64,000 nucleotides of DNA, from positions 165,962 through 229,961 of the forward strand of contig JAYFRF010000001.1 of the NCBI GenBank assembly GCA_034926225.1, given 5' to 3'. Shown here piece by piece: positions 1 through 43,443 of this stretch; position 1 is the first letter of the stretch, and the number at the start of each line of letters is the position of its first letter. The translations under genes were made by a program, and so were the position numbers. The notes under the pieces are model-generated. The model saw only the letters and a program-made list of their open reading frames with translations. It was not told the origin of the DNA and made no database searches. Source of the stretch: Clostridiaceae bacterium (GTDB lineage Bacteria; Bacillota; Clostridia; Oscillospirales; QAMX01).

Positions 1-85
1 TTACAAATATTCAGCTAAGACATCCAGCCTGACCACTTGACTATCAAAACTTCCCTTTTGGACTTGTTCCCAGGAACCTGCTAAA
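1..85 (-). repeat. Conserved intergenic module, copy R0 (partial; central unit missing, distal part cut by window edge)
   Basis: Plus strand reads GACATCCAGCCTGACCAC (19-36), then a CAAAA/TTTTG hairpin, then TTGGACTTGTTCC..GAACC. It aligns with copies R1-R3. Confidence 0.6.
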
Positions 86-89
86 CACC

Positions 90-761
90 TTATTTTATCT
101 GTTTGTTATAAATAATATTACACATGTGTCTATTGGGGTCATTATCAAAGGTAATAATGGCGTCAGAAAGAATAGCGCCCCATTCGCGCAATACACAAAC
201 TGCATCTTCAATAATTCTCAAGGTTGAATCTTCTTCTGTTAATAAATAGCTCAATTCTTTTTTGGGCTGTAATCTGATATTTTCTACTCCCATCTGCGGT
301 AATATTGATTCTAATGTTTTGCACTCAAACAGTGAACTTTTAACGCAACTGAATTGAAACCAACCATAATTATTAAAGTTATAGAGTTCTTTGGTTCCCC
401 ATTTCTCAAAAGCATACTCAACGTGAGTTGTACCTATACCGACTGGACATTTCAAATGCTCCAAGGCGTATGTAACAATCGTACCCAATTCATCTAGTTT
501 CCCTTTTTCACCATAATGGCTCCAATATGCTACTGCAAAATCATTGACCAGCTGTTCCTCGTTGACAGGGTGAGGGCGTGCATCACTATTGAACCACATA
601 AGACCGTGGCCTAATTCATGTATTAGATTATACCAATGAAAGTAGAGCTCAAACCTCTCTTTAGCATCTTCCCCTCCGAAAAGCAGGTCAACGATCTTGT
701 TATCATCAGGCGTTCCTTTCCCGTATCTACCCGTGATTATTTCTATAACTTTTTCATACAT
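90..761 (-). CDS. Hypothetical zincin-like protein with an HExxH motif (IHELGHGLMW)
   Basis: 223-aa ORF with a GGAGGG Shine-Dalgarno about 10 nt upstream of the ATG. It has a single HELGH motif. I do not recognise the family. AT-rich codon usage. Confidence 0.6.
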   Translation of the reverse strand: MYEKVIEIITGRYGKGTPDDNKIVDLLFGGEDAKERFELYFHWYNLIHELGHGLMWFNSDARPHPVNEEQLVNDFAVAYWSHYGEKGKLDELGTIVTYALEHLKCPVGIGTTHVEYAFEKWGTKELYNFNNYGWFQFSCVKSSLFECKTLESILPQMGVENIRLQPKKELSYLLTEEDSTLRIIEDAVCVLREWGAILSDAIITFDNDPNRHMCNIIYNKQIK

Positions 762-802
762 ATCTATACAGCCCTCCTACACATAATAAAAATTTCTTTG
801 TA

Positions 803-852
803 CTATTGCACTTTCTTTGTAATCAATACCACGACTCAACGTGGGATGGCAC
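803..852 (-). pseudogene. Displaced, degenerate copy of the rlmD 3' terminus (copy 3)
   Basis: Minus strand reads ..CACGTTGAGTCGTGGTATTGATTACAAAGAAAGTGCAATAG. This gives HVE then, after a 1-nt deletion, VVLITKKVQ*. The resident rlmD end is HVETVVLMSRVEK*. It shares the GTATTGAT core. Confidence 0.6.
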
Positions 853-915
853 AAATCATCTTAAATATCTTTTACTTAATTCTGCAAGTGCGTTATTTTC
901 TCATAATTTATCCCC

Positions 916-1578
916 CTATTTTGTATTCCACGGAATAGGAGCGTTCAACTCTATTGTTCCGGCCATAATAGGCGTTTTCTCCCCTGTATCCGGATTGGTA
1001 GGCTGGTCGATTTGATACAAAAACCCTGTCTTTCCGTATCTGCCAAGCTTGCTTTGGTTATAGTAGTCGCTGTCCAGGCAAATGTTGACGGTTTTCAATG
1101 CGACCGTCACTTCACGGCACCCAAAAAAACCGGCATTCTCGAATAGTTCATGTTCCCATAAAAACTCACATTCAATGTTGAGAAAACACTCTTTGATCCG
1201 CGGTGCGTTGACCTTCACGGCTCTTTCCGCCGTCAAACCAGTGACGGTAATTTCATCCGTCTCAAATTCATTGTTCCCAATTGTTTTTATACAGCGGTCA
1301 TATATATCATATGAAGGAAAGTTTAGCACGCAAACTCCGGTTTCTTTGAGCGATTGATACATATGTCCGCTTTTTGAGACTGCGCCCATAATACAGATAA
1401 ATTCATCTTTCCCGCCTCCTACAAAAGTTGACCATGATTGTAGACAAGCGTTTTCTTTCCCGTTTGATTTCCAGCCTGTGACGACGAATACCAAAGATGG
1501 CATGGCTGTCAAAAAGCCCTGCCATGTACACCATGGTTCAGTAATTTTTTCAGGTCTTGTAGAAAATTCCTTTTTCAT
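916..1578 (-). CDS. Flavin reductase-like (FMN-binding split-barrel) family protein
   Basis: 220-aa ORF with a GGGAGGG SD. The sequence pattern (..PSLVFVVTG..NG.EN..L.SW.TFV...) is typical of flavin reductase-like domain proteins. AT-rich. Confidence 0.6.
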   Translation of the reverse strand: MKKEFSTRPEKITEPWCTWQGFLTAMPSLVFVVTGWKSNGKENACLQSWSTFVGGGKDEFICIMGAVSKSGHMYQSLKETGVCVLNFPSYDIYDRCIKTIGNNEFETDEITVTGLTAERAVKVNAPRIKECFLNIECEFLWEHELFENAGFFGCREVTVALKTVNICLDSDYYNQSKLGRYGKTGFLYQIDQPTNPDTGEKTPIMAGTIELNAPIPWNTK

Positions 1579-1706
1579 GACATTACCCTCCCATACCGTA
1601 TATAAATTATATGTAATTCAAATCTATCAGAATGTCTGATATCCCTATTAACGTGAATCCATTTTGTTATTTCACAGACAAATAAACATATTATTATATT
1701 TCGAGT

Positions 1707-1877
1707 ATGTTGGTTAGCCTATTCTACTAACCACAAAACCTTGCCAAAATCAAATCACAAACCCATGTTAACTAAACTGACCACTCCCTAAGAGCCGACA
1801 TCTAAAATCGCTCTGTACGGGTCAAAATCATGCCGTTGGACTTGTTTCCACGAACCGAATTATAATGATTTTTACAC
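1707..1877 (-). repeat. Conserved intergenic module, copy R1
   Basis: Plus strand: ATGTTGGTTAGCCTATTCTA ... CTGACCAC ... GACATCTAAAATCGCTCTGT ... hairpin ... TTGGACTTGTTTCCACGAACCGAATTATAATGATTTTTACAC. It aligns with R2 and R3. Confidence 0.7.
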
Positions 1878-1955
1878 AATGGGCTTCGCACCATGTGTGC
1901 TTAACCCTTTATTTTATAAGGGCTATAATCATACCCATCTTTATATAAACTCCAC

Positions 1956-2804
1956 TCAGCAAAATGCGATTATCAAACCTCCGCGCTCGGCATAGAAACT
2001 ATCAAGCCCTCTTGTTTTTAGAATTGTCACTTTTGCGCTTTCCCAAAGTTGGAGAACGCCTGTGCGGACTTTATCAGCCATTTCTTCGTTAAAGCAATGG
2101 CTGATAGCTACCTCACCGCCTTGAAATCCACGCTGCTTCAAGTCGTCCAGTATCATGTCTATAACCTTGTCTGTTCCCCTTGCTTTTCCCTTAATCGCAA
2201 TTTTACCCTCAACGCTTGCTATTCCAACACCCCACATGCCAAATGCCTTAGCAATAAACCCTTTGAGTTTGCTCATTCGTCCGTTCTTTACGAGATTGTT
2301 AAAAGAAGATAGGGCAAAAGTAGTTTTAGTTTCCTCTAAGAACTTTTCTGCTTTTTCTACTATTGTTTCAATGGTTTGGTGACCTTTGATCCATTCAGCA
2401 ATATGATGAATACAGAGAGCGATCTCAGGACCTGTGGAAAGGGAATCCAAAACAACAATTCTCTTTTCCGGATGCTCTGACATTACTATATCGACAGCTG
2501 CCATAGCACTGTTATAACTGCCTGATAAATTGGCAGATATCGTGATCGCTATAGTTGTTTCTGCATTTTTAAACTGCTCTACCCACGCACCCGGGGAAGG
2601 ACAAGCAGAGGAACTAGCAGTGGGAAGTGCTTCCATATCATCAAGCATTTTGAGAACATCCAACTGCTCGTCATCTATATAATCAAGCTTTCCGACACTA
2701 AGGACAAATTCGACGGTAGAAAAACCGACCTCCTCACAGTCCACATCTTTTTTCATCAAATCGCAGGAAGAGTCTGCAACAATGTTCCATTTCATACTTA
2801 TCAT
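1956..2804 (-). CDS. degV: DegV family fatty-acid-binding protein
   Basis: 282-aa ORF with DegV hallmarks (IVADSSCDL near the N-terminus, LSGSYNSA). The start may instead be the ATG at 2795 (MKWNIV..). Confidence 0.85.
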   Translation of the reverse strand: MISMKWNIVADSSCDLMKKDVDCEEVGFSTVEFVLSVGKLDYIDDEQLDVLKMLDDMEALPTASSSACPSPGAWVEQFKNAETTIAITISANLSGSYNSAMAAVDIVMSEHPEKRIVVLDSLSTGPEIALCIHHIAEWIKGHQTIETIVEKAEKFLEETKTTFALSSFNNLVKNGRMSKLKGFIAKAFGMWGVGIASVEGKIAIKGKARGTDKVIDMILDDLKQRGFQGGEVAISHCFNEEMADKVRTGVLQLWESAKVTILKTRGLDSFYAERGGLIIAFC

Positions 2805-2849
2805 TATTTCCTAAACATTTTTTTGTGTAATAATTTTTGAGTACATCAA

Positions 2850-2974
2850 GGTTACCTAACTATGACATCTAACTTGACCACTCGCCAAGCACCGACATCT
2901 AAATCGCTCTGTCAAATTCGAAATCATAGCTTTTGACTTGTTTCCGTGAACCGAATTATCACGATTTTTTACAT
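2850..2974 (-). repeat. Conserved intergenic module, copy R2
   Basis: Plus strand: GGTTACCTAACTA-GACATCTAACTTGACCAC-N11-GACATCTAAATCGCTCTGT-GTCAAA/TTTGAC hairpin-TTGACTTGTTTCCGTGAACCGAATTATCACGATTTTTTACA. It lies directly downstream of rlmD-end copy 1. Confidence 0.7.
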
Positions 2975-3028
2975 TGGTTTGAACTCTCGAATCTTGAAAG
3001 GCTCATATATACTAGACTGTCCATGTAA

Positions 3029-3091
3029 TCATTTTTCGACCTTTGGCATCAATACTACATACCAAACGTGAGTGGTCGATATGGATGTCAC
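3029..3091 (-). pseudogene. Displaced, diverged copy of the rlmD 3' terminus (copy 1)
   Basis: Minus strand reads CACGTTTGGTATGTAGTATTGATGCCAAAGGTCGAAAAATGA, giving HVWYVVLMPKVEK*. The resident end is HVETVVLMSRVEK*. Hand alignment gives about 70% nucleotide identity, with a 12-nt perfect block CATCAATACTAC. Confidence 0.7.
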
Positions 3092-3149
3092 CCGATATTT
3101 TTCGTATAACAGGTGTTGTAGAACGCAAAGTTTATATCTTTCTGTACTT

Positions 3150-3208
3150 TTATGGCTTCATCAATACAACTGTCTCAACCTGTGTGTTCGTGGAAACATG
3201 TCGACATC
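3150..3208 (-). pseudogene. Displaced, diverged copy of the rlmD 3' terminus (copy 2, frameshifted)
   Basis: Minus strand reads GTCGACATGTTTCCACGAACACACAGGTTGAGACAGTTGTATTGATGAAGCCATAA. This gives VDMFPRT.H then, after a frameshift, VETVVLMKP*. The resident end is VDMFPRTAHVETVVLMSRVEK*. Confidence 0.7.
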
Positions 3209-3257
3209 ATTCTATATATGTGTTCATATAAATGATGTATTTATGCTGGTTTAACAT

Positions 3258-3353
3258 TCATTCTGACCTCTCAAGAAATAAGTAAATACCTACACGCTTT
3301 TCTCGCTTTGGAGGTAATGGTGGGATGAAATGAATTGTTTTATTATCAGCCAT
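3258..3353 (-). pseudogene. 31-codon stub resembling the N-terminus of a large serine recombinase (truncated)
   Basis: GGAGG lies 7 nt upstream of the ATG. The product is MADNKTIHFIPPLPPKREKRVGIYLFLERSE*. The ..IP.....KRVGIY.. segment resembles the leader running into the catalytic (K/R)xxxYxRVS motif, but the ORF breaks right after GIY. Assigned from memory of the family only. Confidence 0.35.
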
Positions 3354-3403
3354 TACAAAACCTCCGTTATTACAATTTCATTGTAAAATAGCGGTTTAAT
3401 TTT

Positions 3404-4171
3404 TCAATCTATTTTTCTCCATTTTAAATTTAGCGCTTTGATAAACGAACCCGTATAATTTAAATCCTCTTTATCCAAATCTTCATCTGCCCAAAAAACA
3501 CATTCATCTTCAACGAATAAGCATGCGCCAAAGATTTCTCGGCTATAATTTTCCAGCGCAGGCCTTAAATTCATTGATATCAGACCCTCAAAGTGAAGTT
3601 CGACAATACCATACCAACCGGAATTATTGAAGGTTACAATCAAATTCCTTTGACTATAATCCTCAACATACTGTAATTTATCAAGTGTTGAATCATGAAA
3701 TCCCGTAAACACATTTAATAACGTGTCCGCATCACTTTGAGTCTTAATATATGTCCACTGGTCAGTGTCACTTGGTTCCCTCACTTGAATTGAACACTCA
3801 CTTCTTGGTACGAACCTGTCTCGAAGAATTCTGTGCATAAAATCAAAGTCCTGATAAATCTCAGCATATCCGGAATATTGTTTTATAAAAGCATTTATAC
3901 CATTGCTCTTAAAGAAACGGTTGAGCTTTAAAACATTAACTTTATCATATGTTACCCATTCATTTCTGTCGGAATTGATTATCTCTATCAATGGGAGTAA
4001 CACGCTCTGGTCCTTGGTTTCTTTATCCAGATAATCCACTATCTCGAACGCGTCCTCTCTTGGGTTGAATACGATGTTGCGCTCATAATACCCTATATCA
4101 AGTTTTCCATAAATGATAGATTTATAGAAAAATCCGGTCTTTTTATCAAACACACGCGCAAACATTATCAT
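3404..4171 (-). CDS. Hypothetical protein (no recognisable domain)
   Basis: The ORF is open from 4222, but the AAGAGGAGG SD sits just before the ATGs at 4171 and 4165 (MIMFARVFDKK..). AT-rich. No motif recognised. Confidence 0.6.
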   Translation of the reverse strand: MIMFARVFDKKTGFFYKSIIYGKLDIGYYERNIVFNPREDAFEIVDYLDKETKDQSVLLPLIEIINSDRNEWVTYDKVNVLKLNRFFKSNGINAFIKQYSGYAEIYQDFDFMHRILRDRFVPRSECSIQVREPSDTDQWTYIKTQSDADTLLNVFTGFHDSTLDKLQYVEDYSQRNLIVTFNNSGWYGIVELHFEGLISMNLRPALENYSREIFGACLFVEDECVFWADEDLDKEDLNYTGSFIKALNLKWRKID

Positions 4172-4221
4172 CAACCTCCTCTTAACACTATGGCTATTAA
4201 TCATTTTGGCATATTTCAGCA

Positions 4222-4400
4222 ATGTTGATTAGCCTATTTTAGCTTTTTTATGTTAACATCCAACCTGACCACACAACCTTGGAAAATCCAAAAAACATCT
4301 AAATCGACTACTCGTCAAACACTGACATCTAAATCGCTCTGTCACAAAGAATATCGCTTGTTTCGACCTGTTCCCCCAAGGCAAAGAACCGACAAATTTT
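4222..4400 (-). repeat. Conserved intergenic module, copy R3 (with one extra 30-nt sub-unit)
   Basis: Plus strand: ATGTTGATTAGCCTATTTTA..AACATCCAACCTGACCAC..AACATCTAAATCGAC..GACATCTAAATCGCTCTGT..ACAAG/CTTGT hairpin..GACCTGTTCCC..GAACCGAC. It lies directly downstream of the resident rlmD stop and terminator. Confidence 0.7.
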
Positions 4401-4427
4401 AAGTAACGGTTTTTAGTAACAAATCCT

Positions 4428-4452
4428 GAAAAGCCTTTATTTCAAGGCTTTC
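4428..4452 (-). terminator. Stem-loop just after the rlmD stop (probable terminator)
   Basis: GAAAAGCCTT / AAGGCTTTC inverted repeat with a 6-nt loop, about 8 nt downstream of the rlmD stop. The U-run is weak. Confidence 0.45.
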
Positions 4453-4459
4453 CAAACCT

Positions 4460-5851
4460 CTACTTTTCTACCCTTGACATCAATACTACCGTCTCAACGT
4501 GTGCCGTACGGGGGAACATATCCACCGCTCTTGCGCGTACGGGGGCATAACTCCCGGCAAGGCGTTTGATATCCCGAGCCAGCGTTGCGGGGTCGCAGGA
4601 TACATACACAATCCGTTCGGGAGCCAGCGTAATCAGCATCGCAGCAGCATCCTCGGACAATCCTTTACGCGGGGGATCGACGATGATCGCATCGAAATGG
4701 TCGTTTACGGCGAGGGTTTTGGCATACTCGCCCGCATCTCCACAGTGGAAATCCGCATTCACGATACCATTCGCTGTAGCGTTCTCCCGAGCGTCGCAGA
4801 CGGCAGCTTCTACGATCTCGACGCCGGTCACATGTTCACAGACATCGGCACAGAACAAGCCGATGGTTCCGGTACCGCAGTAAAGATCCAAGAGGCGGCG
4901 GGGATGGTACGGGATACCGGTGTCGGAATGGGTCAGAAACGCTTTGGCACAGGAGTAAAGCTTGGCCGCAGCGAGTGGATTGACTTGAAAAAACGATGCG
5001 GGACGGAGTCGGAACGCAAGGGCGCCGATGGTATCGGTCAGCGTCTCGTCGCCCCAGAGGGTGATAAACTCCCGCCCGAGGATGACATTGGTTCGGACGG
5101 CATTGATGTTTAAAACGATACCGCTGACCGTAAGGCAGGCGGAACGGACAGCGTCGATAAGGGCTTCTTTGTGTGGGATCTCGCGTTTTGCGGCGACGAG
5201 TGTCAGGACAGTGTGTCGATCCTGAAAGGAGGTGCGAACACAGATATGACGGATCAGCCCGTGCCCGGAAAGCTCATTATAAGCGGGAATGCCGTGTGCA
5301 TTCATCCAACCCAGGACAGCCTGTGAAACCGCGGCAGCTTCCGGGGTTTGCAGACGGCAGTATTCTGTGGGTATGACGTCGTGCGTATTGGTACGGTAGA
5401 ATCCGCAGACGGCTTTCCCCGCCTCCCCTGCCACGGGGAACTGTGCGCGGTTGCGGTAGACGTCCACGAGCGGGGATGGAATAATCGGTTCTAACGGGAC
5501 GGAGATACCTGCGATGCGTTCGAAAGCGTCGCGTACCTTTTGTTCCTTATAGCGGAGCTCTTCCGCGTAGGTCATATGCCGTAATGCGCAGCCGCCGCAT
5601 TTGGGATAAACTGCGCAGTCCGGACAGATGCGTTCGGGGGATTCATCAACGACCCGCTCGAGCTTGCCAAAGGCATATGTTTTCTGTACCTTTAAAATAC
5701 GCAGGTCAACCGTTTCCCCAGCGATGGCGCAGGGCGTAAAGACGGCCATGCCATCGATATGGGTTACTCCCGCGCCTTCGCTGGTGTAGCCATCGATGGC
5801 GGCGGTTACGATGTCGTTTTTACGCATGTTCATAAAATACCGCACTTTCAT
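4460..5851 (-). CDS. rlmD: 23S rRNA (uracil-C5)-methyltransferase, RlmD/RumA (TrmA) family
   Basis: It has an N-terminal TRAM-like domain, a Cys cluster (CPDC..C..CGGC) for an Fe-S centre and a class I SAM-MTase core (DLYCGTGTIG; DPPRKG). The start is uncertain: 5851, 5833 or 5827, all overlapping the upstream gene's end. Confidence 0.9.
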   Translation of the reverse strand: MKVRYFMNMRKNDIVTAAIDGYTSEGAGVTHIDGMAVFTPCAIAGETVDLRILKVQKTYAFGKLERVVDESPERICPDCAVYPKCGGCALRHMTYAEELRYKEQKVRDAFERIAGISVPLEPIIPSPLVDVYRNRAQFPVAGEAGKAVCGFYRTNTHDVIPTEYCRLQTPEAAAVSQAVLGWMNAHGIPAYNELSGHGLIRHICVRTSFQDRHTVLTLVAAKREIPHKEALIDAVRSACLTVSGIVLNINAVRTNVILGREFITLWGDETLTDTIGALAFRLRPASFFQVNPLAAAKLYSCAKAFLTHSDTGIPYHPRRLLDLYCGTGTIGLFCADVCEHVTGVEIVEAAVCDARENATANGIVNADFHCGDAGEYAKTLAVNDHFDAIIVDPPRKGLSEDAAAMLITLAPERIVYVSCDPATLARDIKRLAGSYAPVRARAVDMFPRTAHVETVVLMSRVEK

Positions 5852-7583
5852 GGGGAGATAAGGTGACGAAAATCTGACCGTCCGTTGGGTTGAATACGGC
5901 GTCCGTCCATAATTCGTGCATCGGTTTTACTGACGAAAACGTAAAGGTTTCGGATGACTCACCGAAGTTGATGACGATGTACCGTCTCCCCTGCTTCCAG
6001 ATACAGGGATAGTCGCGAACAAACTGATCCAGCGGGACGGCGCTGTCCTCGGAGCGCAGAGACAGGGCCTTTTCGATGATCGAACGGCCTTCGCTGTTTA
6101 AAACAGCGAGTCGGTCGGACAGATTCATGTTGCCGCCGGTCAGGAGAACAACCGCCGCCCAGGAACGAGCCTCCGCGAGGGTGAAGTCCTCTCCCGAACG
6201 CCAGCGGCTGTGATTGGGAGTGTAGCGAGCAGGGTCGATGGTATTGCGCTGCGGGTCGGTATCCGTATTCTGCCCACGTACGACGAGGAAATCGATATCA
6301 TTAACCCAGATACGGCGGTGCTCGCCCCAGTGATGCTGGTAGCATTCCATCGCCCAAAGAACATGGTTCCAGGTGATGTGGATATCGATGCCGGTACGTC
6401 CTGCGTCCGCATCCGGGGACGCCGCTTCAACCGGTAACGAGCAGCCAATGATGACGCTGTCGTGTACGCATTCGCGGATAAGCGAGAATAACCGACGCAG
6501 AGCTTCGTACTGAGAGACGGTTTTATCGTAAAAATATTTGACATGGCGTAAGCAACCGACGTAATCGACCTTATAGAGCCGGAAACCGGCGTCATAGAGC
6601 CTAGTATAAAGCGAACGGATAAAGTCGACGGTATCCGGATGGGTCGGGTCGAGGACATACATGCCGTCCTCCGTGACAGGATTGCTGTATTCGTCGCGCA
6701 GATAGCCCGTCATACGGCGCTGTGCGTAGGAGCAGAGCGTCCAGACGTGCAGAGGGGCTGACCAGATACCGGGAATTAAGCCGTGGGCGCGGATCGTGTC
6801 GGCGGCGGCCTGTAAGCCGTGAGGGAAACGGAAATTCGGGTACCAGTCACCTTGAATGGCCTGCCACCCGTCGTCTAAAGTGAAATAACGAAGATTATCG
6901 CGATATGCCGGCACTTGATCGATAACCGACAGGTTTTCCTCCATGCAGGCTTCGTCAATATCGGTAAAATAGTAATCCCAGGTGTTATAGCCGACGATAC
7001 TTTTTTGGTAATGCCAGAGTTGGGGCAGGAGGGTAAAGTATTCGTCTAACGCGGGGGCGAGCCGGCCGCACGCGAAGTACAGCTCCGCCGACTCGAAGGT
7101 ATCCGACGTAAATGAACGCGGCGGTGTAACAGAGAGAGAGACTTCCGCAACACCGCTGTGACTGCGGATATGGAAGGCTTCGTCAAAACACAAAGGATAA
7201 ATGGAACGCGCCATAAAGCCTTCGCCGTCTTTGTATAGATAAACGGCTGGTGCGGTGATGTCAAACGTATCGGAAAGTGTATGGAAACCGGACTCGATGC
7301 CTTTGGAACGAACGGCATGCGCTCCATCCGGATATGCTACAGCGGCGATGAGGGGTGAAAAAGCGTCGAGTGTGCAGGGCGCGGCAAAATGGATGGTCAG
7401 CCGCGCCGTGTAGCCGAACGGCATAGCGCGCAGCTTCCACTGTGCATAAATGCCGTCATGCGCGTAGGTATATGCGCCGTCGATAAAGGGCAGTTCGGCG
7501 ATGGAGACGATGCTGGCCTTCCCGTCGATGGTGAAGGAGAAACGCGGAAACCCGAGAAAATCAGGCAGTTTTATCTGTGGCAT
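5820..7583 (-). CDS. Alpha-galactosidase-like glycoside hydrolase (clan GH-D, GH36/GH27-like)
   Basis: 587 aa with a GGAGGGG SD. It has the FTLDDGWQ motif and the YKVDY (KxD) motif characteristic of melibiase-type enzymes. Confidence 0.7.
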   Translation of the reverse strand: MPQIKLPDFLGFPRFSFTIDGKASIVSIAELPFIDGAYTYAHDGIYAQWKLRAMPFGYTARLTIHFAAPCTLDAFSPLIAAVAYPDGAHAVRSKGIESGFHTLSDTFDITAPAVYLYKDGEGFMARSIYPLCFDEAFHIRSHSGVAEVSLSVTPPRSFTSDTFESAELYFACGRLAPALDEYFTLLPQLWHYQKSIVGYNTWDYYFTDIDEACMEENLSVIDQVPAYRDNLRYFTLDDGWQAIQGDWYPNFRFPHGLQAAADTIRAHGLIPGIWSAPLHVWTLCSYAQRRMTGYLRDEYSNPVTEDGMYVLDPTHPDTVDFIRSLYTRLYDAGFRLYKVDYVGCLRHVKYFYDKTVSQYEALRRLFSLIRECVHDSVIIGCSLPVEAASPDADAGRTGIDIHITWNHVLWAMECYQHHWGEHRRIWVNDIDFLVVRGQNTDTDPQRNTIDPARYTPNHSRWRSGEDFTLAEARSWAAVVLLTGGNMNLSDRLAVLNSEGRSIIEKALSLRSEDSAVPLDQFVRDYPCIWKQGRRYIVINFGESSETFTFSSVKPMHELWTDAVFNPTDGQIFVTLSPHESAVFYEHA

Positions 7584-23763: not shown

Positions 23764-25675
23764 ATGCCTTTATGAACTGGCCTTTGACGAAGCGGATGAA
23801 CTCTCCTTCAGGCATGGGGCGGGCATAATAATAGCCCTGCATATAAGGTACGCCCATGGAACGCAGCAGACGGATGTGATTGTCGGTCTCGATGCCTTCG
23901 ACGACGACGGAGATACCCATGTTTGCGAACATCGACGCGAGGCCTGCAAGCAGCGCGGTTTTACGGGGTTCTTCATATGCCGTCCAAAGGATTTCTTTGC
24001 CTACCTTGATATATTGGAACGGAAGCTGTAATATGTAATCCAGATTGGACTGACCCGAGCCATAGTCGTCGAGCGCGAAGCTAAAACCTTCCTGCACGAG
24101 TCGGTTCATATTACGCTCCAGTGTGGACAAAGAGCTTGCTGCGGTGGTTTCTGTGATCTCAAAACAGATCAACTCTGGCTTAACCGTATAACGCTGCACT
24201 GTTTCCATATAGGTATGCGGCAGAGAATCCTGAATACACTGGATTGCCGAAAGATTGACGTTGATGTGATTAATTCCGGCCGCACGAATATCGAAATCGG
24301 AGAGGAAGGCACAGACTTTTTCCAGTATCTGCAGACCTAATCGGTTGATAAGCCCGTTTTGCTCAGCGACATGGATGAACTGATCGGGCGGGATAAACCC
24401 GAGCGTGTCATCGTAAAGGCGGGCGAGAGCCTCGGCGGCGAAAATGTGGCCGTTTGCATCGACAATCGGTTGAAAATATATTTCGATACTGCGTTCCTCC
24501 GCAGCACGGTTGACTGCGGCGACAATGAGCAGCATTTGTTCCAGTTCTTCGCAGACAGAACTGGTGACATACAGGGGACGGTCCGCCGGGATATGAGACG
24601 GATCGGAAAGTAGCAGATCCACGGTTGTGAGCATACGATCGGCAGAGGGGATTTCGACGCTGTCAAAAACGGCCGCGTATAGATTGAACTGAAATTCGAC
24701 GTCATGAAAACGAATGCTGGCGGGGAAGCCGTCCGCCGCCCAGCGAAGATCGCGGAGATCCTCGTCCCGAAGGGTTAACAATGCGAAGGTATTGTCGTTT
24801 AAGCGCGCCGTCATACGGCCATGATTTTGATCTTCAAAGGATTGAGCTACCTGCTCGTAAAATGGCCCACAACATTTTTGTCCGAGAGAGTGGCGGATGC
24901 TGGCAGAATCACTGATCATATAGATGGCAAGGCGGAAGTGGACTCTGCCTGCGGACATTTCATTGATGCTGCGTTCAAGCGCCGCCAGATTGAACAGCTG
25001 CGTCTGTGCATCAAGCAGGTCGCGCGGCGTCTCGAGCGCAATGGACATCATCGTGACGCCGAGCGTCGCGGCAAAGCCAATCAGGATATACTCGGGCTGG
25101 TATTTTTCAATAATAATCGCGGCAAGAATAATGAAGATGAAGGATATCATGGAAACAAAAACCCTGCGGGGCAGGGATCGGCGGCGAACAATCAAGTGTA
25201 TGACACAGGCGAGGATGTACAGCGCTGCGATTCCAAACAGCAGGCAGTTATAGGGCCCACGACGATAGGCGTGCGAAGCATCGATATAGAAAATCCAGTG
25301 ACTCCAAGGTGATGAAATCGTAAGAGCGATGCAGAGCATGCACGGAATTAACAAAAGGACGCAGCCGGAGACGCGCATTCGGTCCTTAGGACTGGTTAGA
25401 ATATGGGTATATAGGCAAAACATGCTTGAAAGTGATATATTTAATGATAAATAAACAGTATTAACTAAATATAACAACCATATAGGGTAAAATTCTGACA
25501 TTTCGAGCATTGAAACGGCGGCAATATCGAGGTATATATCAAAAAAAACAGTCAGCATTAACCCCTCAAAGACCTTGTTTTTTAGGCTCTGGAGCCGACG
25601 CTGACCGAAGTGCAGTATGATTATTAACAAAAGATAGAAGAAAGCGCTAATTTCAAACCATATATTAAAAGCCAT
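23762..25675 (-). CDS. Membrane-anchored c-di-GMP phosphodiesterase (multi-TM sensor, degenerate GGDEF, EAL)
   Basis: About 7 N-terminal TM helices. The GGDEF position reads RLNDNTFAL and is therefore degenerate. The EAL domain carries EALARL, LDDYGSG and VVEGIET motifs. Confidence 0.8.
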   Translation of the reverse strand: MAFNIWFEISAFFYLLLIIILHFGQRRLQSLKNKVFEGLMLTVFFDIYLDIAAVSMLEMSEFYPIWLLYLVNTVYLSLNISLSSMFCLYTHILTSPKDRMRVSGCVLLLIPCMLCIALTISSPWSHWIFYIDASHAYRRGPYNCLLFGIAALYILACVIHLIVRRRSLPRRVFVSMISFIFIILAAIIIEKYQPEYILIGFAATLGVTMMSIALETPRDLLDAQTQLFNLAALERSINEMSAGRVHFRLAIYMISDSASIRHSLGQKCCGPFYEQVAQSFEDQNHGRMTARLNDNTFALLTLRDEDLRDLRWAADGFPASIRFHDVEFQFNLYAAVFDSVEIPSADRMLTTVDLLLSDPSHIPADRPLYVTSSVCEELEQMLLIVAAVNRAAEERSIEIYFQPIVDANGHIFAAEALARLYDDTLGFIPPDQFIHVAEQNGLINRLGLQILEKVCAFLSDFDIRAAGINHINVNLSAIQCIQDSLPHTYMETVQRYTVKPELICFEITETTAASSLSTLERNMNRLVQEGFSFALDDYGSGQSNLDYILQLPFQYIKVGKEILWTAYEEPRKTALLAGLASMFANMGISVVVEGIETDNHIRLLRSMGVPYMQGYYYARPMPEGEFIRFVKGQFIKA

Positions 25676-25833
25676 ATGTGCTTTAAGCCACCTCTTTCCT
25701 AACTATTTTTAGTATATCAGAAAAAAGGGTGCTATTCAAGGAATACTAAAAAAACTGGCTAGATTTGGCATAGCTTACAAATATGAATAGAATAATTATG
25801 CAATGTGTGCAATGAAAAATAGAGCGAATCGTC

Positions 25834-27333
25834 TTAGGGCGTTGCCCAGCCCTTTGCGTGACCGATAGCTTGCTGCCAACGGGCATAACTTGCAGAAGCA
25901 TCGTTTTCCGGATAGAATGTGCGCTCAGTACGGTATAAAGCCAAAAGCTCGTCGGTGTCACGCCATACGCCGGCGGACAGACCCGCCAGATACGCGGCCC
26001 CGGCGGCGGTGGTTTCTGTCATAGCGGGGCGGCGTACCGGAAGCCCGAGCACATCTGCCTGGAAACGCATCATCACATCGCTTCTGCTGGCGCCGCCGTC
26101 GACGCGCAGCTCCGTTAATATACATCCGTCCTCTGCCATGGCACGGACGAGATCGGCGGTCTGATAGGCGATTCCCTCGAGCGCCGCGCGGCACAGGTGC
26201 GCTTTGGCGGTGCCTCGTGTAAGACCAACGATGGCACCCCGGGCATACATATCCCAATGGGGCGCGCCAAGGCCAGTAAATGCAGAAACGAAGTAGATGC
26301 CGCCGGCATCCGGTACCGTTTCGGCAAGGATATCGCATTCATGAGCGGAGGAAATGAGCCCCAGCTCATCGCGCAGCCATTGGATGGAAGAACCGGCGTT
26401 GAAAACGCTGCCTTCAATGGCATAGGTCGTCTTGCCGTCAAGCTGCCATGCCACGCTAGTCAGTAAACCGTTTTTAGAGCGGGGAGAAACGCTGCCGGTA
26501 TTCTGCAACAGAAAGCAGCCGGTGCCGTATGTGTTTTTTGCTTCGCCAGGCGCAAAGCAGCATTGCCCAAACAGGGAAGCGGGCTGATCTCCGGCACATC
26601 CGCGGATAGGAATGCCTGCAAGCGTCTCCAGCCCGGGCAGGTGTTCCGCAAGTACGCCGAAATCACCGGAGGACGGGCGGGCTTCGGGCAGCAGGGACAT
26701 CGGGATGTGCAAGGCTTTGCACATCGTTTCATCCCAGCACAGCCGGTCGATGTCGAACAGCATGGTACGTGAGGCGTTGGAATAGTCCGTGGCGTGGACA
26801 TGTCCGTCTGTAAGATTCCATATAAGCCATGAATCGACGGTGCCGGCGCACAGCTCTCCCCTATCCGCGCGTTCCCGTACCCCGGGGACGTTTTCTAGAA
26901 TCCATGCAAGCTTTGTCGCTGAAAAATAGGCGTCCGGTACAAGGCCGGTTACACGGTGGATCGTGGATTCCAGCCCCATCTCCCGCAGCCGTTCCACGAT
27001 GGGGGCGGTACGGCGGCATTGCCATACGATTGCATTATAGACGGGTTTACCGGTAACGCGATCCCATACGACGGTGGTTTCGCGCTGGTTGGTGATGCCG
27101 ATGGCGGAAATGTCGCATGGAGACAGGCCGGAATCCGCGAAGGCTTCGGCGAAACAGGATACCGTAGTCGAGAGGATATCGTAAGGGTCATGTTCAACCC
27201 AGGCGGGCTGGGGATAGATCTGACGGAAGGATTTTTGAGCCGTGGCGATGACAGAGGTATCCGCACCGAAAAGGATGGCTCGGGAGCTGGTGGTGCCTTG
27301 ATCGAGCGAAACGACGGCGGTTTTCATGGGCAA
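25834..27333 (-). CDS. glpK: Glycerol kinase
   Basis: 499 aa, FGGY kinase family. The N-terminus is VVSLDQGTTSSRAILF, with a full-length match to the GlpK pattern. Confidence 0.95.
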   Translation of the reverse strand: MPMKTAVVSLDQGTTSSRAILFGADTSVIATAQKSFRQIYPQPAWVEHDPYDILSTTVSCFAEAFADSGLSPCDISAIGITNQRETTVVWDRVTGKPVYNAIVWQCRRTAPIVERLREMGLESTIHRVTGLVPDAYFSATKLAWILENVPGVRERADRGELCAGTVDSWLIWNLTDGHVHATDYSNASRTMLFDIDRLCWDETMCKALHIPMSLLPEARPSSGDFGVLAEHLPGLETLAGIPIRGCAGDQPASLFGQCCFAPGEAKNTYGTGCFLLQNTGSVSPRSKNGLLTSVAWQLDGKTTYAIEGSVFNAGSSIQWLRDELGLISSAHECDILAETVPDAGGIYFVSAFTGLGAPHWDMYARGAIVGLTRGTAKAHLCRAALEGIAYQTADLVRAMAEDGCILTELRVDGGASRSDVMMRFQADVLGLPVRRPAMTETTAAGAAYLAGLSAGVWRDTDELLALYRTERTFYPENDASASYARWQQAIGHAKGWATP

Positions 27334-38990: not shown

Positions 38991-39033
38991 AATGCCCTCA
39001 AACGAAGGTGTCTTGCCATCGTTTGAGGGCATT
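38991..39033. terminator. Bidirectional terminator
   Basis: 15-bp perfect stem AATGCCCTCAAACGA / TCGTTTGAGGGCATT between convergent genes. Confidence 0.75.
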
Positions 39034-39045
39034 ATATTATGTATA

Positions 39046-39567
39046 TTAGGCTTTTTGCGCGGGGAAGCAAAGGTCTAGAATGACGCAGCCTTTTTCGTCC
39101 GGCGTTGTAAAGCGCGGGCAGACGTAGCGCTCCACACACCAAAGGGCGCCGTCCGGTTCGAGTGCAACGGGAATTCCGGCGGCGGTGAGGGCGTTGATCG
39201 CGATGTCCTCATGGCAGTAAAGCTCATTTTCCTTGCCGTAAATCCATGCGACGGCTAGGTCTCCAGTTGGGAAATCGACACAGGTAAAGCCGTCCGGCAC
39301 CGGGGACCCGGCGGCGGTGAACATGCCGATCCAGTAACGGAAAGGCGCGCCTTCGAGGTACCACATCAAGCCCAGATACGCGTCGGTGTCGTCATAGCCG
39401 GGGACTTTGCCAATGGCGCGTTCGAGCTTGTCGAAGGTGCCGTGCGCGAACCATTCGCCCCATTTTGCGCCAAAGGTGCCGTTTTGCCGATCGGCATCGC
39501 CATATTCGATACCGATGAAGCGGAGTGCGGGGACGGGCTGCCGGTAAGTTTTGATGATTTCTGGCAT
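39046..39567 (-). CDS. GyrI-like / AraC-effector-binding-domain (Cass2-type) small-molecule-binding protein
   Basis: GAGAGGAG SD 8 nt before the ATG at 39567. The pattern (IKTYRQPVPALRFIG..YWIGMF..) is typical of GyrI-like domains. Confidence 0.55.
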   Translation of the reverse strand: MPEIIKTYRQPVPALRFIGIEYGDADRQNGTFGAKWGEWFAHGTFDKLERAIGKVPGYDDTDAYLGLMWYLEGAPFRYWIGMFTAAGSPVPDGFTCVDFPTGDLAVAWIYGKENELYCHEDIAINALTAAGIPVALEPDGALWCVERYVCPRFTTPDEKGCVILDLCFPAQKA

Positions 39568-39732
39568 AGCGGGCGCTCCTCTCAAATATGAATAAGTAAA
39601 TAAAAGCGGTAATAATACAATTTTATAATTAGTTCCGCCATATGCATGCCGGTTGTTTTTGGTTTTTTATAATTTTAAATACAAATTGCTTCATAAACCA
39701 ATAGATGGGATTTTTATGGTATAGTATTATGC

Positions 39733-40086
39733 TTATTTTATAGGCTTAAGATTGTTTTTATCGATCCATGCTTCTTTGAAATCAGATTTTCTTTTACACC
39801 AATACCAACCGTTAAGTTCATAAACTGTTTCAACCGTATCACCATGTAAAACGGACATTTCTTCAGATGTATATGTTTGTTGAACAATAGCAGTACCATC
39901 ACCATTTGCTGTTAATATACCAGCTGCTACCCAACCCGTTTTGCCTGTCCTAACAGAGGTACACTTTATCCAATCGGGATATTGACTATAGGGGTCAGTT
40001 TTTTCTCCTAACTGTACTGTATCCCCTATTTGTAATTCAATAATATGCCCATTATACTTATAGTCGTTTATTACTTCCATTAACAT
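39733..40086 (-). CDS. Hypothetical protein with two SH3-like repeats
   Basis: 117 aa in an AT-rich islet. It has two similar segments, GDTVQLGEK..WIKC..GKTGWVAAGIL and GDTVETVYELNGWYWC..EAWIDKNNL. Confidence 0.45.
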   Translation of the reverse strand: MLMEVINDYKYNGHIIELQIGDTVQLGEKTDPYSQYPDWIKCTSVRTGKTGWVAAGILTANGDGTAIVQQTYTSEEMSVLHGDTVETVYELNGWYWCKRKSDFKEAWIDKNNLKPIK

Positions 40087-40156
40087 TTGCTTTTACCTTT
40101 ATCGTATAAATTATCATAAGAACCTTTTGCTTGGGGAGAACTATATTCCTTATTTA

Positions 40157-40185
40157 ATCTTACACTGTCGTAAGGCCTTTGTCAA
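40157..40185 (-). promoter_or_regulatory. Candidate promoter of the SH3-like gene
   Basis: Minus strand: TTGACA, 17-nt spacer, TAAGAT. Confidence 0.45.
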
Positions 40186-40348
40186 GTAGAACGAATGAAT
40201 TTACCACAGAAATGAATCTTTTCACGATACTTCACACCTTTTCACGAAAGGTAAGCAAGCGTTATAGGACGATTGCATCTTTCCATGATGCGGTTCTATA
40301 AAAAGCAGAAAAGCCGCCTCGAAAGGCAGCTTTATTTTCCCATAAATA

Positions 40349-40379
40349 CAAAAAAGCCAAGTATTACTTGGCTTTTTTG
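40349..40379. terminator. Bidirectional terminator closing the tRNA operon
   Basis: AGCCAAGT / ACTTGGCT stem flanked by an A6 run and a T6 run. Confidence 0.75.
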
Positions 40380-40412
40380 TTGACATTGTATCAATATCAA
40401 CGTCTGTCTTTT

Positions 40413-40488
40413 TGGAGCGGGTTACGAGATTCGAACTCGCTACCTCCACCTTGGCAAGGTGGCGCTCTACCAAATGAGCTAAACCCGC
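40413..40488 (-). tRNA. tRNA-Gly (GCC), copy 2
   Basis: Hand-folded cloverleaf with 7-bp acceptor stem, anticodon loop TTGCCAA, T-loop TTCGAAT and encoded CCA. Identical to the copy at 40587. Confidence 0.9.
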
Positions 40489-40586
40489 AGATAATTGCAA
40501 AAAATAATGTACCAAAAAAATATCGCGGAGAGACACCGTATGTGTTCTACCGATCAACAAGGGAACAACCTTAACGAAAGGAAAAG

Positions 40587-40662
40587 TGGAGCGGGTTACG
40601 AGATTCGAACTCGCTACCTCCACCTTGGCAAGGTGGCGCTCTACCAAATGAGCTAAACCCGC
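40587..40662 (-). tRNA. tRNA-Gly (GCC), copy 1
   Basis: 76 nt, identical to 40413..40488. Confidence 0.9.
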
Positions 40663-40666
40663 AAAT

Positions 40667-40742
40667 TGGTGCCTCCGGGCGGAATTGAACCACCGACACG
40701 GGGATTTTCAGTCCCCTGCTCTACCAACTGAGCTACAGAGGC
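40667..40742 (-). tRNA. tRNA-Phe (GAA)
   Basis: Cloverleaf folded by hand, with anticodon loop CTGAAAA and encoded CCA. Confidence 0.9.
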
Positions 40743-40764
40743 AAATAAAATAAAAAGGGGAGAA

Positions 40765-40841
40765 TGGCGACCCGAATGGGGCTCGAACCCATGACCTCTA
40801 GCGTGACAGGCTAGCGTTCTAACCAGCTGAACTACCGGGCC
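40765..40841 (-). tRNA. tRNA-Asp (GUC)
   Basis: Cloverleaf folded by hand, with anticodon loop CTGTCAC and encoded CCA. Confidence 0.9.
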
Positions 40842-40888
40842 GCATATTGCGTTGCAGTTTGAGGCGCGGTATCCACCTCAAAAAACAT

Positions 40889-40964
40889 TGGTGGAAACAA
40901 CAGGGCTCGAACCTGTGACCCCATGCTTGTAAGGCATGTGCTCTTCCAGCTGAGCTATGCTTCC
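40889..40964 (-). tRNA. tRNA-Val (UAC)
   Basis: Cloverleaf folded by hand, with anticodon loop CTTACAA and encoded CCA. Confidence 0.9.
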
Positions 40965-41150
40965 ATGCCGTATTTCCGGTCATCAGCTTCGCTCTCTCGC
41001 AACCGACGAATGTCATTATACACGATGGGAGGCAATTTGTCAAGAGTTATTTTCGAAAAATTTCGTTATTTTTCCTCCAACCGAGATTTAGTCGAAAATC
41101 AAGAAAAACCGTCGGAAAAGCTTGGATACACTTCCCCGACGGTTTTTATT

Positions 41151-43259
41151 TTAAAGCAACGGCAGCAGTTCCTCGTCGATGGCGCGGCGTGTGACGGCGA
41201 TTTTCCATCGGATTTGTTCCGGTGCCGCGCAGTAGTCCAGCTCCTGATTATAACCTAAGCGGGAGTCCTCCTCCACGAGTGGGAGCGTCGCCTCGGCATT
41301 GGCAATTTCACGCTGTGCGATCTCGATCAACTCGAGTATGATCGGGCGCGGATCCTCCGCCGCCAAAAGCGGCTTCTTTGCACTTGCGGCATCGGGCATG
41401 TTTTTACGTCCGCCGCACCAGATCGGCAATGTATCGACGTAAACGCCGAGCTGCCCTTTGAGAAGATGCCAACGCTTGACATGCGTGATCGTGCGGGCAG
41501 TGTTCGCGATGAACCGCGCAACTCCGAGAAGACGTTGGGCCTCCTCTGCCTTAGGTCCGGTCATGCGGGAGATAACGATGGAGAGCTGCTCGCAGCCTGC
41601 ATCGAACAAACGAGCCATCGTTTCATATTCATCGGCCTCATAGGATAACTTGTCGGAGAGATCAAGATTATACCGATATACGGGGTTTGACTCGGAATTC
41701 GGATTCGCTTTCGATTTTGGCCCGATGGGAATCGGCTCCCAACGCTTGAAAAACAGCGGATACGACGGACCGATGCGCGCCGGGCCGTATTGATCTTCGT
41801 TAGTGGAAACACAGTGCTCCATGCCGTCGGAGAACAGCGAGAACGCGCGCAGGACATCGTCGGCATTTTCCTCGCCAAAGTCGCGGATGACGATGCGACG
41901 CAGAAGCGCATCCAGATCGGGCATGGGGGTCATGTACGCGTACTTTGCAAGAGAGGGCAGGATGGACGGCCAGAAACCGTAGGAGTGGGACTCCTCCACC
42001 CCGTCGAGCCGCAGGGTATCCTGTGCCTCGGCAACCGCTTTCCATCGTTTGATCCACCGCTGCGGCGCCGGCAGATACGGTACCACACCGATATCCCAGG
42101 TGTTGCCGCCGGTGTTCGTCATCGAGTACATACGGATACCCCGTTTACGGGCGATGGCGGATTCCGTCTTGAAGTATTCGCCGGGTCCGATGAACCAAAG
42201 GGTATAATCGGTACAGGTTTCACGGATGCCGGGAGCGATATCGAAGTTTTCGAACATTTCAAAGGTCGCCATCATCGTAATATCGGTCGGCACGGTACGC
42301 AGGAGCTCCTCCCGCAGCTCACGCTTTTCATAACCCCAGTTATAAGTCCAAAAAATAACATCGGCATCCGGCTTATGCGCACGGATAACGTCACGCAGCA
42401 GCGACACGAATTGCGGATAGTCCTCGCATGGAAACCAGCCGGGACTGGGTTTTTCATCATGGATGGATTCACGCCATGTCTTTCCGGTGGTACGGGCGTC
42501 ATGCGACGGGAACTCGCAGCACTCGCCGACGATCATCAAACCCTTCAAGCCGGGACAGACGTCAAACAACTTCCCGTACATCCCGTCGTAGTACTCATAC
42601 GCACCGGGATCGTCCGGGTGATGTTCATTATGAAACGGTGAGAAGGTATACACATCGATGCCGTATTGTGCCGCGCGGGCGATTAGATCATTAACATGTT
42701 CCCGCACCGCCGGGTCGGAAATCGCGTTTCGTGTACCGATTTTTACTCCGTCGATACCGGCATGTGCCAGCATCCGGAGGTGTTCATCGGGATAATTACC
42801 GCTCTCCATGCCGGAATGGATGATACGAGGTGAAAAACGGGCGCAGAGCGTTTTTTCGCACGGGGCTATGATAGGAGCCTCATTTAGATTCAACTCATCC
42901 TCGAGCGCGTAACAGCCCTGTGAGGCGGCGCGCTCATCGGCACCCGTAATTTCGATGCCCTCCCCTACCCTGATTCGGAAAGTGCGGGGCGGCAAGGAAG
43001 GATCGACGGCGACAGTGATCACCTGCCGCCCCGCACAAGCGGATAAATCAAGCGCCAGCGGCAGATCCATAGAGACCGCGAAGTACTCGGCCAAATCCGC
43101 AGCGGCATTGCGCAGCACTTCCTTTGAGTCCCAGGGTATTCCTATTTTCCATTCCGCGGTGATCACAGTGCCGGATAGTTTTTTGACGGCATCTGGATTG
43201 ACGCGATGGGGCTTGTGCACCTGGAGAAGCTTATTTTTAAATTCAAACGGTGTTTCCAT
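41151..43259 (-). CDS. Large uncharacterised protein, probable glycoside-hydrolase-like enzyme
   Basis: About 702 aa from the ATG at 43259 (GGAGGTG SD). The N-terminal region resembles the small alpha/beta domain that precedes catalytic barrels in GH20/GH67-type enzymes, and the central region looks like a TIM barrel. Family not recognised. Confidence 0.55.
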   Translation of the reverse strand: METPFEFKNKLLQVHKPHRVNPDAVKKLSGTVITAEWKIGIPWDSKEVLRNAAADLAEYFAVSMDLPLALDLSACAGRQVITVAVDPSLPPRTFRIRVGEGIEITGADERAASQGCYALEDELNLNEAPIIAPCEKTLCARFSPRIIHSGMESGNYPDEHLRMLAHAGIDGVKIGTRNAISDPAVREHVNDLIARAAQYGIDVYTFSPFHNEHHPDDPGAYEYYDGMYGKLFDVCPGLKGLMIVGECCEFPSHDARTTGKTWRESIHDEKPSPGWFPCEDYPQFVSLLRDVIRAHKPDADVIFWTYNWGYEKRELREELLRTVPTDITMMATFEMFENFDIAPGIRETCTDYTLWFIGPGEYFKTESAIARKRGIRMYSMTNTGGNTWDIGVVPYLPAPQRWIKRWKAVAEAQDTLRLDGVEESHSYGFWPSILPSLAKYAYMTPMPDLDALLRRIVIRDFGEENADDVLRAFSLFSDGMEHCVSTNEDQYGPARIGPSYPLFFKRWEPIPIGPKSKANPNSESNPVYRYNLDLSDKLSYEADEYETMARLFDAGCEQLSIVISRMTGPKAEEAQRLLGVARFIANTARTITHVKRWHLLKGQLGVYVDTLPIWCGGRKNMPDAASAKKPLLAAEDPRPIILELIEIAQREIANAEATLPLVEEDSRLGYNQELDYCAAPEQIRWKIAVTRRAIDEELLPLL

Positions 43260-43403: not shown

Positions 43404-43443
43404 ACATGACTGTCGGCAGTTGAAAGTTTCCGATCATAAATAA

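Follow-up and report, generated by a model that had tools for sequence, protein, structure and literature searches.

Candidate attachment-site junctions of serine-recombinase elements stacked behind the 23S rRNA methyltransferase gene rlmD in a clostridial genome

Results

The rlmD locus and the AT-rich island downstream of it

The window, a stretch of 64,000 nucleotides of a Clostridiaceae genome (contig JAYFRF010000001.1), carries on its minus strand, at 4460-5851, a gene whose TRAM and tRNA_U5-meth_tr (PF05958) domains identify it as rlmD/rumA. Downstream of this gene, positions 1-4459 form an AT-rich island with a GC content of 35-41%, compared with ~55% in host DNA, and the reverse complement of the island is present in the Logan contig L001, which reaches past the window start (window coordinates equal 4497 minus those of L001). 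Four copies of the rlmD terminus (T), all in one orientation, lie in the window together with four blocks of short repeats (R blocks) of ~80-150 bp, a fifth R block being located past the window start. Between the R blocks there are single genes, namely ORF A, a DegV-family gene, a flavin reductase-like gene, ORF D and a GGDEF gene (Table 1), and three of the blocks (R3, R4 and R5) have no T. No recombinase gene was found in the 64-kb window except for a 27-codon remnant at 3258-3353, which was detected solely by alignment to the metagenome contigs L107 and L110, and none within 12.5 kb beyond the window start in L001; tblastn with recombinases against the island and the window gave no significant match. 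A promoter scan of the island showed no enrichment (18 compared with 12.6 +/- 3.3). Elsewhere in the window, further stretches of low GC content (0.41-0.47 compared with ~0.55) occur at 25001-26000, 39001-41000, 43001-45000 and 47001-50000. The family of ORF A (~250 aa, no Pfam domain) also has a member in a siphophage with a large serine recombinase, as an extra gene between those for the tail (L111, 10001-10762), and its homologues are mostly found on contigs of ~1-2 kb.

Table 1. Features of the island downstream of rlmD (window coordinates unless a contig is named).
Feature	Position	Strand	Remark
Resident site S1 (attL-type)	4460..4525	-	Host DMFPRT codons, CA, terminus T1
S1 D-type left half	4504-4522	-	Host rlmD DMFPRT codons
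T1	4479-4501, on to stop at 4460	-	T pattern matched exactly
Terminator-like hairpin	4425..4456	-	13-pair stem and T-rich tail, directly after the rlmD stop
R1 block	4255..4401	-	Inverted DMFP-like site 4365-4383 and three direct sites
R1 direct R-type sites	4324-4342, 4290-4311, 4255-4274	-	
ORF A	3404..4171	-	E1 cargo, 255 aa, no Pfam family
E1 serine recombinase remnant	3258..3353	-	First ~27 codons, MADNKTIHFIPPLPPKREKRVGIY...
Lone direct R-type site	3250..3269	-	GAGAGGTCAGAATGAATGTT, family D6; follows the recombinase gene in intact relatives
Copy 2, candidate junction S2	3150..3208	-	rlmD-like D-type left half, CA, T2
S2 D-type left half	3183-3208	-	
T2	3160-3182, on to TAA at 3150	-	1-nt deletion
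Spacer between copies 2 and 1	3092..3149	-	58 nt
Copy 1, candidate junction S3	3027..3091	-	Inverted R-type half-site, then T3
S3 inverted R-type half-site (I2)	3070-3090	-	25 bits
T3	3048-3070, on to TGA at 3027	-	
R2 block	2860..2977	-	Inverted DMFP-like site 2935-2953 and two direct sites
DegV-family cargo gene	1956..2804	-	PF02645, E = 3.5e-42
R3 block	1765..1877	-	No terminus copy in front
Flavin reductase-like cargo gene	916..1578	-	PF01613
Copy 0, candidate junction S4	803..870	-	Left arm not rlmD-like
T4	821-843, on to TAG at 803	-	1-nt deletion
ORF D cargo	90..761	-	223 aa, no Pfam family
R4 truncated block	17..97	-	Inverted DMFP-like site and one direct site
Array past the window start	L001 4581-5720		GGDEF gene and two-site R5 remnant

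The copies of the rlmD terminus are composite

The first-pass annotation had recognised, by hand alignment, diverged pseudo-copies of the end of rlmD at the sites of copies 2 and 1, and this resemblance holds up under formal alignment, as does that of the 803-852 region, which the annotation had listed for comparison. When the last 71 nt of rlmD were aligned with the minus strand (Smith-Waterman), the scores were 45 for copy 2 (3140-3215), 37 for copy 1 (3020-3100) and 29 for copy 0 (795-860), whereas 2000 shuffles of each target averaged 13 (sd 2.1-2.2; 12.9 +/- 2.2 for copy 0), peaked at 23-25 and in no case equalled the observed score. No further match to the rlmD end scoring above 21 was found in a scan of both strands of the whole island, and the pattern CAYGTTGAGNNNGTNGTATTGAT, at up to three mismatches, matches only the T1, T2 and T3 stretches of Table 1, all on the minus strand, with a chance expectation of 0.01 over 64 kb. 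The copies have their orientation and reading frame in common, and a stop codon closes each of them. The translations given earlier are correct: copy 2 reads VDMFPRT, a 1-nt deletion, then VETVVLMKP and a stop, and copy 1 reads HVWYVVLMPKVEK and a stop.

Neither copy is simply a host terminus. The best matches of copy 2 are the rlmD ends of other, low-GC Clostridia (L073, 86%), to which it is nearer than to the resident terminus, and no rlmD sequence precedes its rlmD-like left half. Sites that begin at this left edge, (V)DM, are also found as orphans in L122 and L204, and we read this left half as a putative element-borne arm that mimics the target. T2 is followed neither by a terminator nor by an R block. 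As for copy 1, its 3' part is indeed an rlmD terminus (T3), but its 5' third, 3070-3090, is an inverted R-type repeat that scores 25 bits on a position weight matrix of 91 R sites, compared with a null maximum of 16.6. This architecture recurs in L083, and R2 follows T3 at the canonical distance (117 nt), suggesting that copy 1 is a joint between the arm of an upstream element and a T3-R2-DegV unit. The gap between the two copies is short, as described earlier, although it measures 58 nt (3092-3149) rather than ~55 bp. It is flanked by a T without terminator or R block on one side and by an element-type left arm on the other, and no homologue of it was found in ~230 loci by which a lost element could be identified; it may be all that remains of the body of an element, which we call E2.

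The resident terminus has a similar provenance, a point that was missed in the first-pass annotation together with the element-arm character of the left halves of the copies. The 32 nt of T1 from CAC onward are identical to the terminus of the viral contigs L086, L087, L095 and L099, whereas the rlmD termini of relatives without R blocks (41-50% identical, from a scan of genome contigs with RlmD) match T1 at just 19-29 of 32 positions, and the GC content drops from 0.58 to 0.43 in the last 42 nt of the gene. Since it agrees fully with the mobile consensus and differs from the termini of R-free relatives, the resident terminus appears to be itself element-derived, the last 13 codons of the gene having been imported. 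Exact look-ups of rlmD with two start codons gave no match, and the gene next to rlmD is present in one sample only, on a contig that stops inside rlmD, making a comparison within the species impossible; it is thus from relatives that we infer integration at this locus.

A terminus-repeat module in viral and metagenome contigs

The order of features behind rlmD recurs elsewhere as a module: T (the rlmD terminus, CAYGTTGAGACGGTAGTATTGATGTC...stop, where CAYGTTGAGACGGTAGTATTGATGTCAAGGGT..stop corresponds to the last 13 rlmD codons), a terminator, an R block and a cargo gene. The R block consists of one inverted DMFP-like site, in which the rlmD DMFP codons appear as their reverse complement (GGTTCGTGGAAACAAGTC), and of direct sites (GAGTGGTCAGGTTAGATGTC), four at most, at intervals of 29-30 or 39-41 bp, after which a variable cargo gene follows. 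Exact-pattern scans found the module in 22 IMG/VR contigs and in at least 120 metagenome contigs, giving at least 140 viral and metagenome contigs overall, and the source habitats of these R blocks are digesters, fermenters and guts. Among the matches listed, R-type sites lie downstream of T in 115 of 126 T sites, and the inverted site lies 118-122 nt after T in all 65 modules (65/65) and ~118 nt after it in R1 of the window. A terminator hairpin occupies the equivalent place in viral loci. The module lies directly behind rlmD in 39 of the 120 metagenome loci among the matches listed, and a left half of rlmD type is found 21 nt upstream of T at 40 T sites among the viral and metagenome matches listed; at the remaining loci T abuts unrelated DNA or element arms. 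Cargo is wholly different between loci while the modules are conserved. The recurrence of this terminus and repeat block in at least 140 contigs, next to rlmD in some and to unrelated DNA in others, bears out the earlier contention that the copies did not arise by duplication of the host gene.

The region between T and R shows no significant single-strand fold: folding 2850-3100 as single-stranded DNA gave -23.4 kcal/mol, compared with -21.5 +/- 3.0 for shuffles (z = -0.65). An Rfam search gave nothing above noise. The inverted DMFP-like site covaries with the rlmD DMFP codons in R1, but not in L107 and L085. The R1 inverted site at 4365-4383 (TGCCTTGGGGGAACAGGTC) has TTCCCCC..GGCA in common with the resident DMFPRT codons at 4504-4522, whereas the inverted sites of R2 and R3 match the version of copy 2 instead (TTTCCACGAAC), a correspondence that could be due to chance, gene conversion or co-selection. 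Two other arrangements deserve mention. In a Ruminococcus metagenome-assembled genome (L035, 11430-11580), the inverted DMFP-like site is present three times in direct orientation (..GAGAACAAGTCA, ..GGGAACAAATCA and ..AGGAACAAGTCA) right after the rlmD terminator, without R-type sites, and an AraC-family gene follows in low-GC DNA. Upstream of the T-R module of L101 (minus strand, 1786-7349) there are a SNF2-type helicase-like ORF of 891 aa and an ORF of 501 aa that is PglZ-like by eye, possibly representing defence cargo.

Left flanks switch at the CAY codon

Right arms at least 97% identical with unrelated left flanks characterise 32 pairs of T sites, and in 24 of these pairs the switch point lies between -2 and +3 of the C in CAYGTT; the pairs outside this interval are mostly two rlmD genes. 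The left rlmD flanks of L141 and L147 are 100% identical over 150 nt, yet the two contigs carry different modules and diverge from the Y of CAY onward. In L093 the module is joined to the interior of L085-type phage DNA, reading ...GTCCA joined to CGTTGAG, where L085 itself reads ...GTCCA followed by AGTGGAGAGG, and we regard this joint as a likely secondary insertion into a look-alike pseudo-site. The first-pass annotation had proposed the GTATTGAT block, which all copies keep, as the crossover core. Since the left flanks switch at CAY, ~14 bp upstream, GTATTGAT is not that core and is better explained as a half-site, and GTATTGATGTC would belong to the right half-site. The joint between L093 and L085, at the CA that precedes CGTT, also lies ~14 bp upstream of GTATTGAT. 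Crossover thus probably falls on the CA of the His codon (CAY) or right next to it. Its position can be narrowed down no further than to a few bases, as the T of L085 differs at 5 positions while its next 300 nt are identical to other copies, and as the Y of CAY segregates with either side depending on the pair.

In 96 of 101 cases the right half of T is similar to R sites at one constant offset, exceeding the 95th percentile of the null in 75 of the 101, but this resemblance is only moderate (mean -0.1 compared with -13 for the null). An inverted R-type half next to T scores 25 bits in copy 1, 12 bits in L083 and 15 bits in L102, against the null maximum of 16.6, whereas the sequence of the D-type left half is of another class. 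The inverted R-type half and the right half of T would together conform in part to the inverted-repeat layout expected of a serine-recombinase site. No occupied and empty version of the same locus was found among the ~230 loci.

Neighbouring recombinases and the decayed element E1

In 16 of the 22 viral loci, a pair of large serine recombinases that are paralogues of each other is encoded 1-5 kb from the module. Both enzymes have Resolvase, Recombinase and Zn_ribbon_recom domains, a Recombinase-domain protein of 138-143 aa is encoded between them, and holin and GH25 lysin genes are found beside these clusters. Serine recombinase matches were also obtained in 52 of the 120 metagenome loci among those listed. 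A smaller architecture of ~2-2.2 kb recurs in L107, L136, L149, L151, L174 and L188, in which T, R and a cargo gene are followed by a gene for a 307-aa recombinase (Resolvase and Recombinase domains only), a lone R-type site, ~85 nt and the next T. The proposal that the termini stem from separate integration events gains support from these modules that adjoin serine recombinase genes, and from the two modules carried by one rlmD allele (L141/L147).

The first unit of the island, E1 (T1, R1, ORF A and the recombinase remnant), belongs to this small class. L107 carries an intact 2.2-kb unit in the order rlmD, T, R, ORF A, 307-aa recombinase, lone R site and next T, and in L107 and L108 a homologue of ORF A, 87% identical, lies between rlmD with R and the serine recombinase. 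Positions 1-1216 of L001, which span T1, R1, ORF A and 73 nt past its stop, are 83% identical to L107/L108 and 80% identical to L110. The remnant behind ORF A aligns with the recombinase starts of L107 and L110 (VADNKIVHYIPQLPPKREKRVGIYCRVST...), but the homology breaks at GGTATTTAC, codon 27, and resumes at the lone R site, whose region is 92% identical to L110 11336-11387 and whose arrangement recurs in L107, L110 and L089. Therefore ~880 bp have been deleted from E1, which is evidently a recombinase-deleted derivative of an L107-type element of 2.2 kb. The island thus presents units without a recombinase between T copies of the same orientation, while an autonomous relative, L107, occupies the same type of site.

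Discussion

Why should the window hold four copies of the end of rlmD? We consider it likely that the pseudo-copies are attachment-site junctions left by elements that a site-specific serine recombinase integrated, one after another, into the last 13 codons of rlmD. The target would be a site of ~50 bp inside rlmD, with the DMFPRT codons as its left half, crossover at or next to the CA of CAY and ...GAGACGGTAGTATTGATGTC as its right half. An incoming element would bring its own near-identical right half (T), a terminator, an R block and cargo. Because the element brings its own T, integration would restore a full-length RlmD and push the old terminus downstream, where it would now be joined to the left arm of the element. 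The new joint behind rlmD would again consist of an rlmD left half and a consensus T and hence still be a target, so that elements would pile up with the newest beside rlmD.

Applied to the island, this scheme suggests a history in which the T3-R2-DegV element was once joined directly to rlmD. E2 would then have inserted, contributing the T of copy 2 as its terminus and the inverted R-type half in copy 1 as its right arm, and later have lost nearly all its body, leaving the 58-nt spacer. E1, comprising T1, R1, ORF A and the recombinase gene, would have inserted last and then lost ~880 bp of that gene, while R3, copy 0, R4 and R5 would be older, further truncated units. This order is our reading of the arrangement. 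The most economical reading is still the one suggested earlier, that almost a whole element was probably lost between copies 1 and 2. The arms of the E1 relatives are of AATAGCCT type, unlike the rlmD-like left half of copy 2; a simple history thus needs a variant arm or an extra rearrangement. As no recombinase is left, the array would now be fixed unless a recombinase is supplied in trans.

It is possible, though in our view rather unlikely, that we are instead dealing with an integron-like cassette platform that uses serine recombinases, in which the R blocks recombine and the T copies are by-products. Integrons rely on the tyrosine recombinase IntI, an attI site and attC sites that fold as single strands. 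Like an integron, the island starts from a fixed anchor, behind which units of one gene each alternate with members of a repeated site family of ~100-150 bp. R blocks bracket single genes in the window (R2-DegV-R3), two or more R blocks are present in 27 of the 120 metagenome loci among those listed, typically 0.8-2.9 kb apart, and cargo is unlike from locus to locus behind modules that are conserved. In addition, many ORF A homologues lie on contigs of ~1 kb, as if flanking repeats had broken the assemblies. A methyltransferase cassette is identical behind four different rlmD alleles, with identity extending from R site 2 to a hybrid site. This cassette of ~0.9 kb is found in L135 (4650-5929), L224 (6390-7800), L228 (1930-3350), L159 (370-1780) and L164 (1-1200); the identity starts inside R, at the second direct site, and runs up to a block of two sites, the second of which resembles a hybrid between sites 2 and 4. 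The absence of T from R3-R5 and the cassette boundaries inside R indicate that some reshuffling takes place within R and not at T. However, the hybrid sites would be explained by homologous or unequal recombination, to which tandem 30-bp repeats are prone. Moreover, the R sites are direct repeats of one half-site type and not dimer sites, the region between T and R lacks a significant single-strand fold, and the sharp breakpoints with unrelated flanks are at T and not in R. In L110, regular repeats are absent between the small genes of the long row behind T, and no IntI tyrosine recombinase with attI was found beside rlmD or in the array. The units here also differ from integron cassettes in that they appear to be separately transcribed modules, each with a predicted terminator.

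There is also a small chance that the T-R module serves as site system to a gene-capture platform, widespread and so far undescribed, that is driven by serine recombinases in anaerobic Clostridia. Phages and minimal elements of ~2 kb (att, R, one cargo gene and a 307-aa recombinase without zinc ribbon) would then share the module, and the direct half-sites of R would act as accessory or exchange sites for swaps of single genes behind rlmD. If true, this would amount to an integron-like function built on a different chemistry.

Very unlikely, to our minds, is that the island holds remnants of tyrosine-integrase elements, with T as the core site and R as arm-type binding sites of a lambda-like attP. 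Direct repeats on one arm and inverted repeats on the other do resemble an attP with arm sites, and a conserved gene is hit at its 3' end and has its terminus restored, but the recurrent neighbours are serine recombinases, no tyrosine recombinase is recurrent and the remnant in the window is of the serine type. Transposon ends (TG...CA termini, nested inverted repeats) were considered and rejected: the inverted pairs interleave and do not nest, and serine recombinases are the neighbours. That the copies arose by local duplication and divergence of the host 3' end, or by chance similarity in AT-rich DNA, is barely credible despite their common orientation, frame and stop codon, given alignment scores far above shuffles, the match of copies and resident terminus alike to the mobile consensus of at least 140 unrelated contigs, the greater proximity of copy 2 to foreign rlmD ends (86%) and left arms that are not rlmD sequence.

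Serial integration of serine-recombinase elements, the reading that we favour, has precedents. Serine integrases of streptococcal ICEs and of C. difficile CTn5 target rumA (PMC4701971, PMC4320837), and the rum/rlmD locus is a known hotspot of tandem accretion (PMC13651849). The rumA ICEs resemble the elements described here in having a serine enzyme with Resolvase and Recombinase domains, in inserting into the 3' part of the same 23S rRNA uracil-5-methyltransferase gene, in exchanging the 3' end of that gene and in forming tandem arrangements at the site. However, their site lies inside the integrase gene and RumA gains a different or longer C-terminus, whereas here a near-identical terminus and a terminator are supplied, followed by the R repeat block, and the recombinases come as a triplet cluster or as the 307-aa enzyme, in elements as small as ~2 kb. 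Tandem accretion is also described for ICESt1/ICESt3-type CIMEs, remnants that can be mobilised in cis, and for phage-ICE tandems at rum (cited in PMC13651849). Such elements stack at one att site with direct att copies at the internal junctions and include remnants without recombinase that are flanked by att sites; the classic cases involve tyrosine integrases and units of tens of kb, whereas the units here are of 0.1-2 kb, heavily truncated and of the serine-recombinase type.

A junction of the ICE type, after ETVV, is present in L007 and L008. In many Oscillospiraceae rlmD is extended past HVETVV by ~90 codons (..LSKGEI.SKK..LEDMDMSGFQKG..KQPKCPPEKEAAITEALKHFGMI and a stop), namely in L004, L008, L010, L017, L019, L022, L024, L025, L037 and L040, further in L042, L075, L081 and L082, and in truncated form in L007 (1458-1592) and L059. 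The extended gene is similar to the rumA-CD1844A fusion that CTn5 creates in C. difficile, and the extension is probably the mark of a second family of rumA-targeting elements whose joint lies after ETVV. In L016 (11350-12665), an insert of 1.2 kb with a lipoprotein-like ORF stands behind rlmD, and past it the N-terminal part of an ABC ATPase runs in frame into a second copy of the rlmD 3' end, 190 nt long, that has diverged slightly.

SCC elements, which use the paired large serine recombinases CcrA and CcrB, insert at the 3' end of rlmH (orfX) in staphylococci, so that the last codons of an rRNA methyltransferase gene are the target and are restored, and they form composite arrays that are bounded by gene-end repeats and include units without recombinase genes. 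The likeness extends to the paired recombinases, the restored end of a methyltransferase gene and the repeat-bounded arrays, but the target here is rlmD/rumA (PF05958 and TRAM) and not rlmH (orfX), and the hosts differ. We know of no R-like half-site array in SCC. Nor are large serine recombinases in general known to need repeat arrays or anything else beyond simple sites.

The kind of event described here is thus a known one, combining serine integrases at rumA with tandem accretion, while the R block and the mini-elements of ~2 kb appear to be undescribed so far. For annotation, it follows that the last 13 codons of this rlmD are probably imported and that the 4.5 kb downstream would be a graveyard of mobile units with accessory genes (DegV, flavin reductase, GGDEF and unknowns). 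Less ordinary are the strongly conserved R block adjacent to the att site, at fixed spacing in at least 140 contigs, and mini-elements of just ~2 kb. Should R prove to have a function, this would be relevant to directional control in serine integrases and to the spread of small cargo genes among anaerobes, and it could offer compact, naturally re-usable landing pads.
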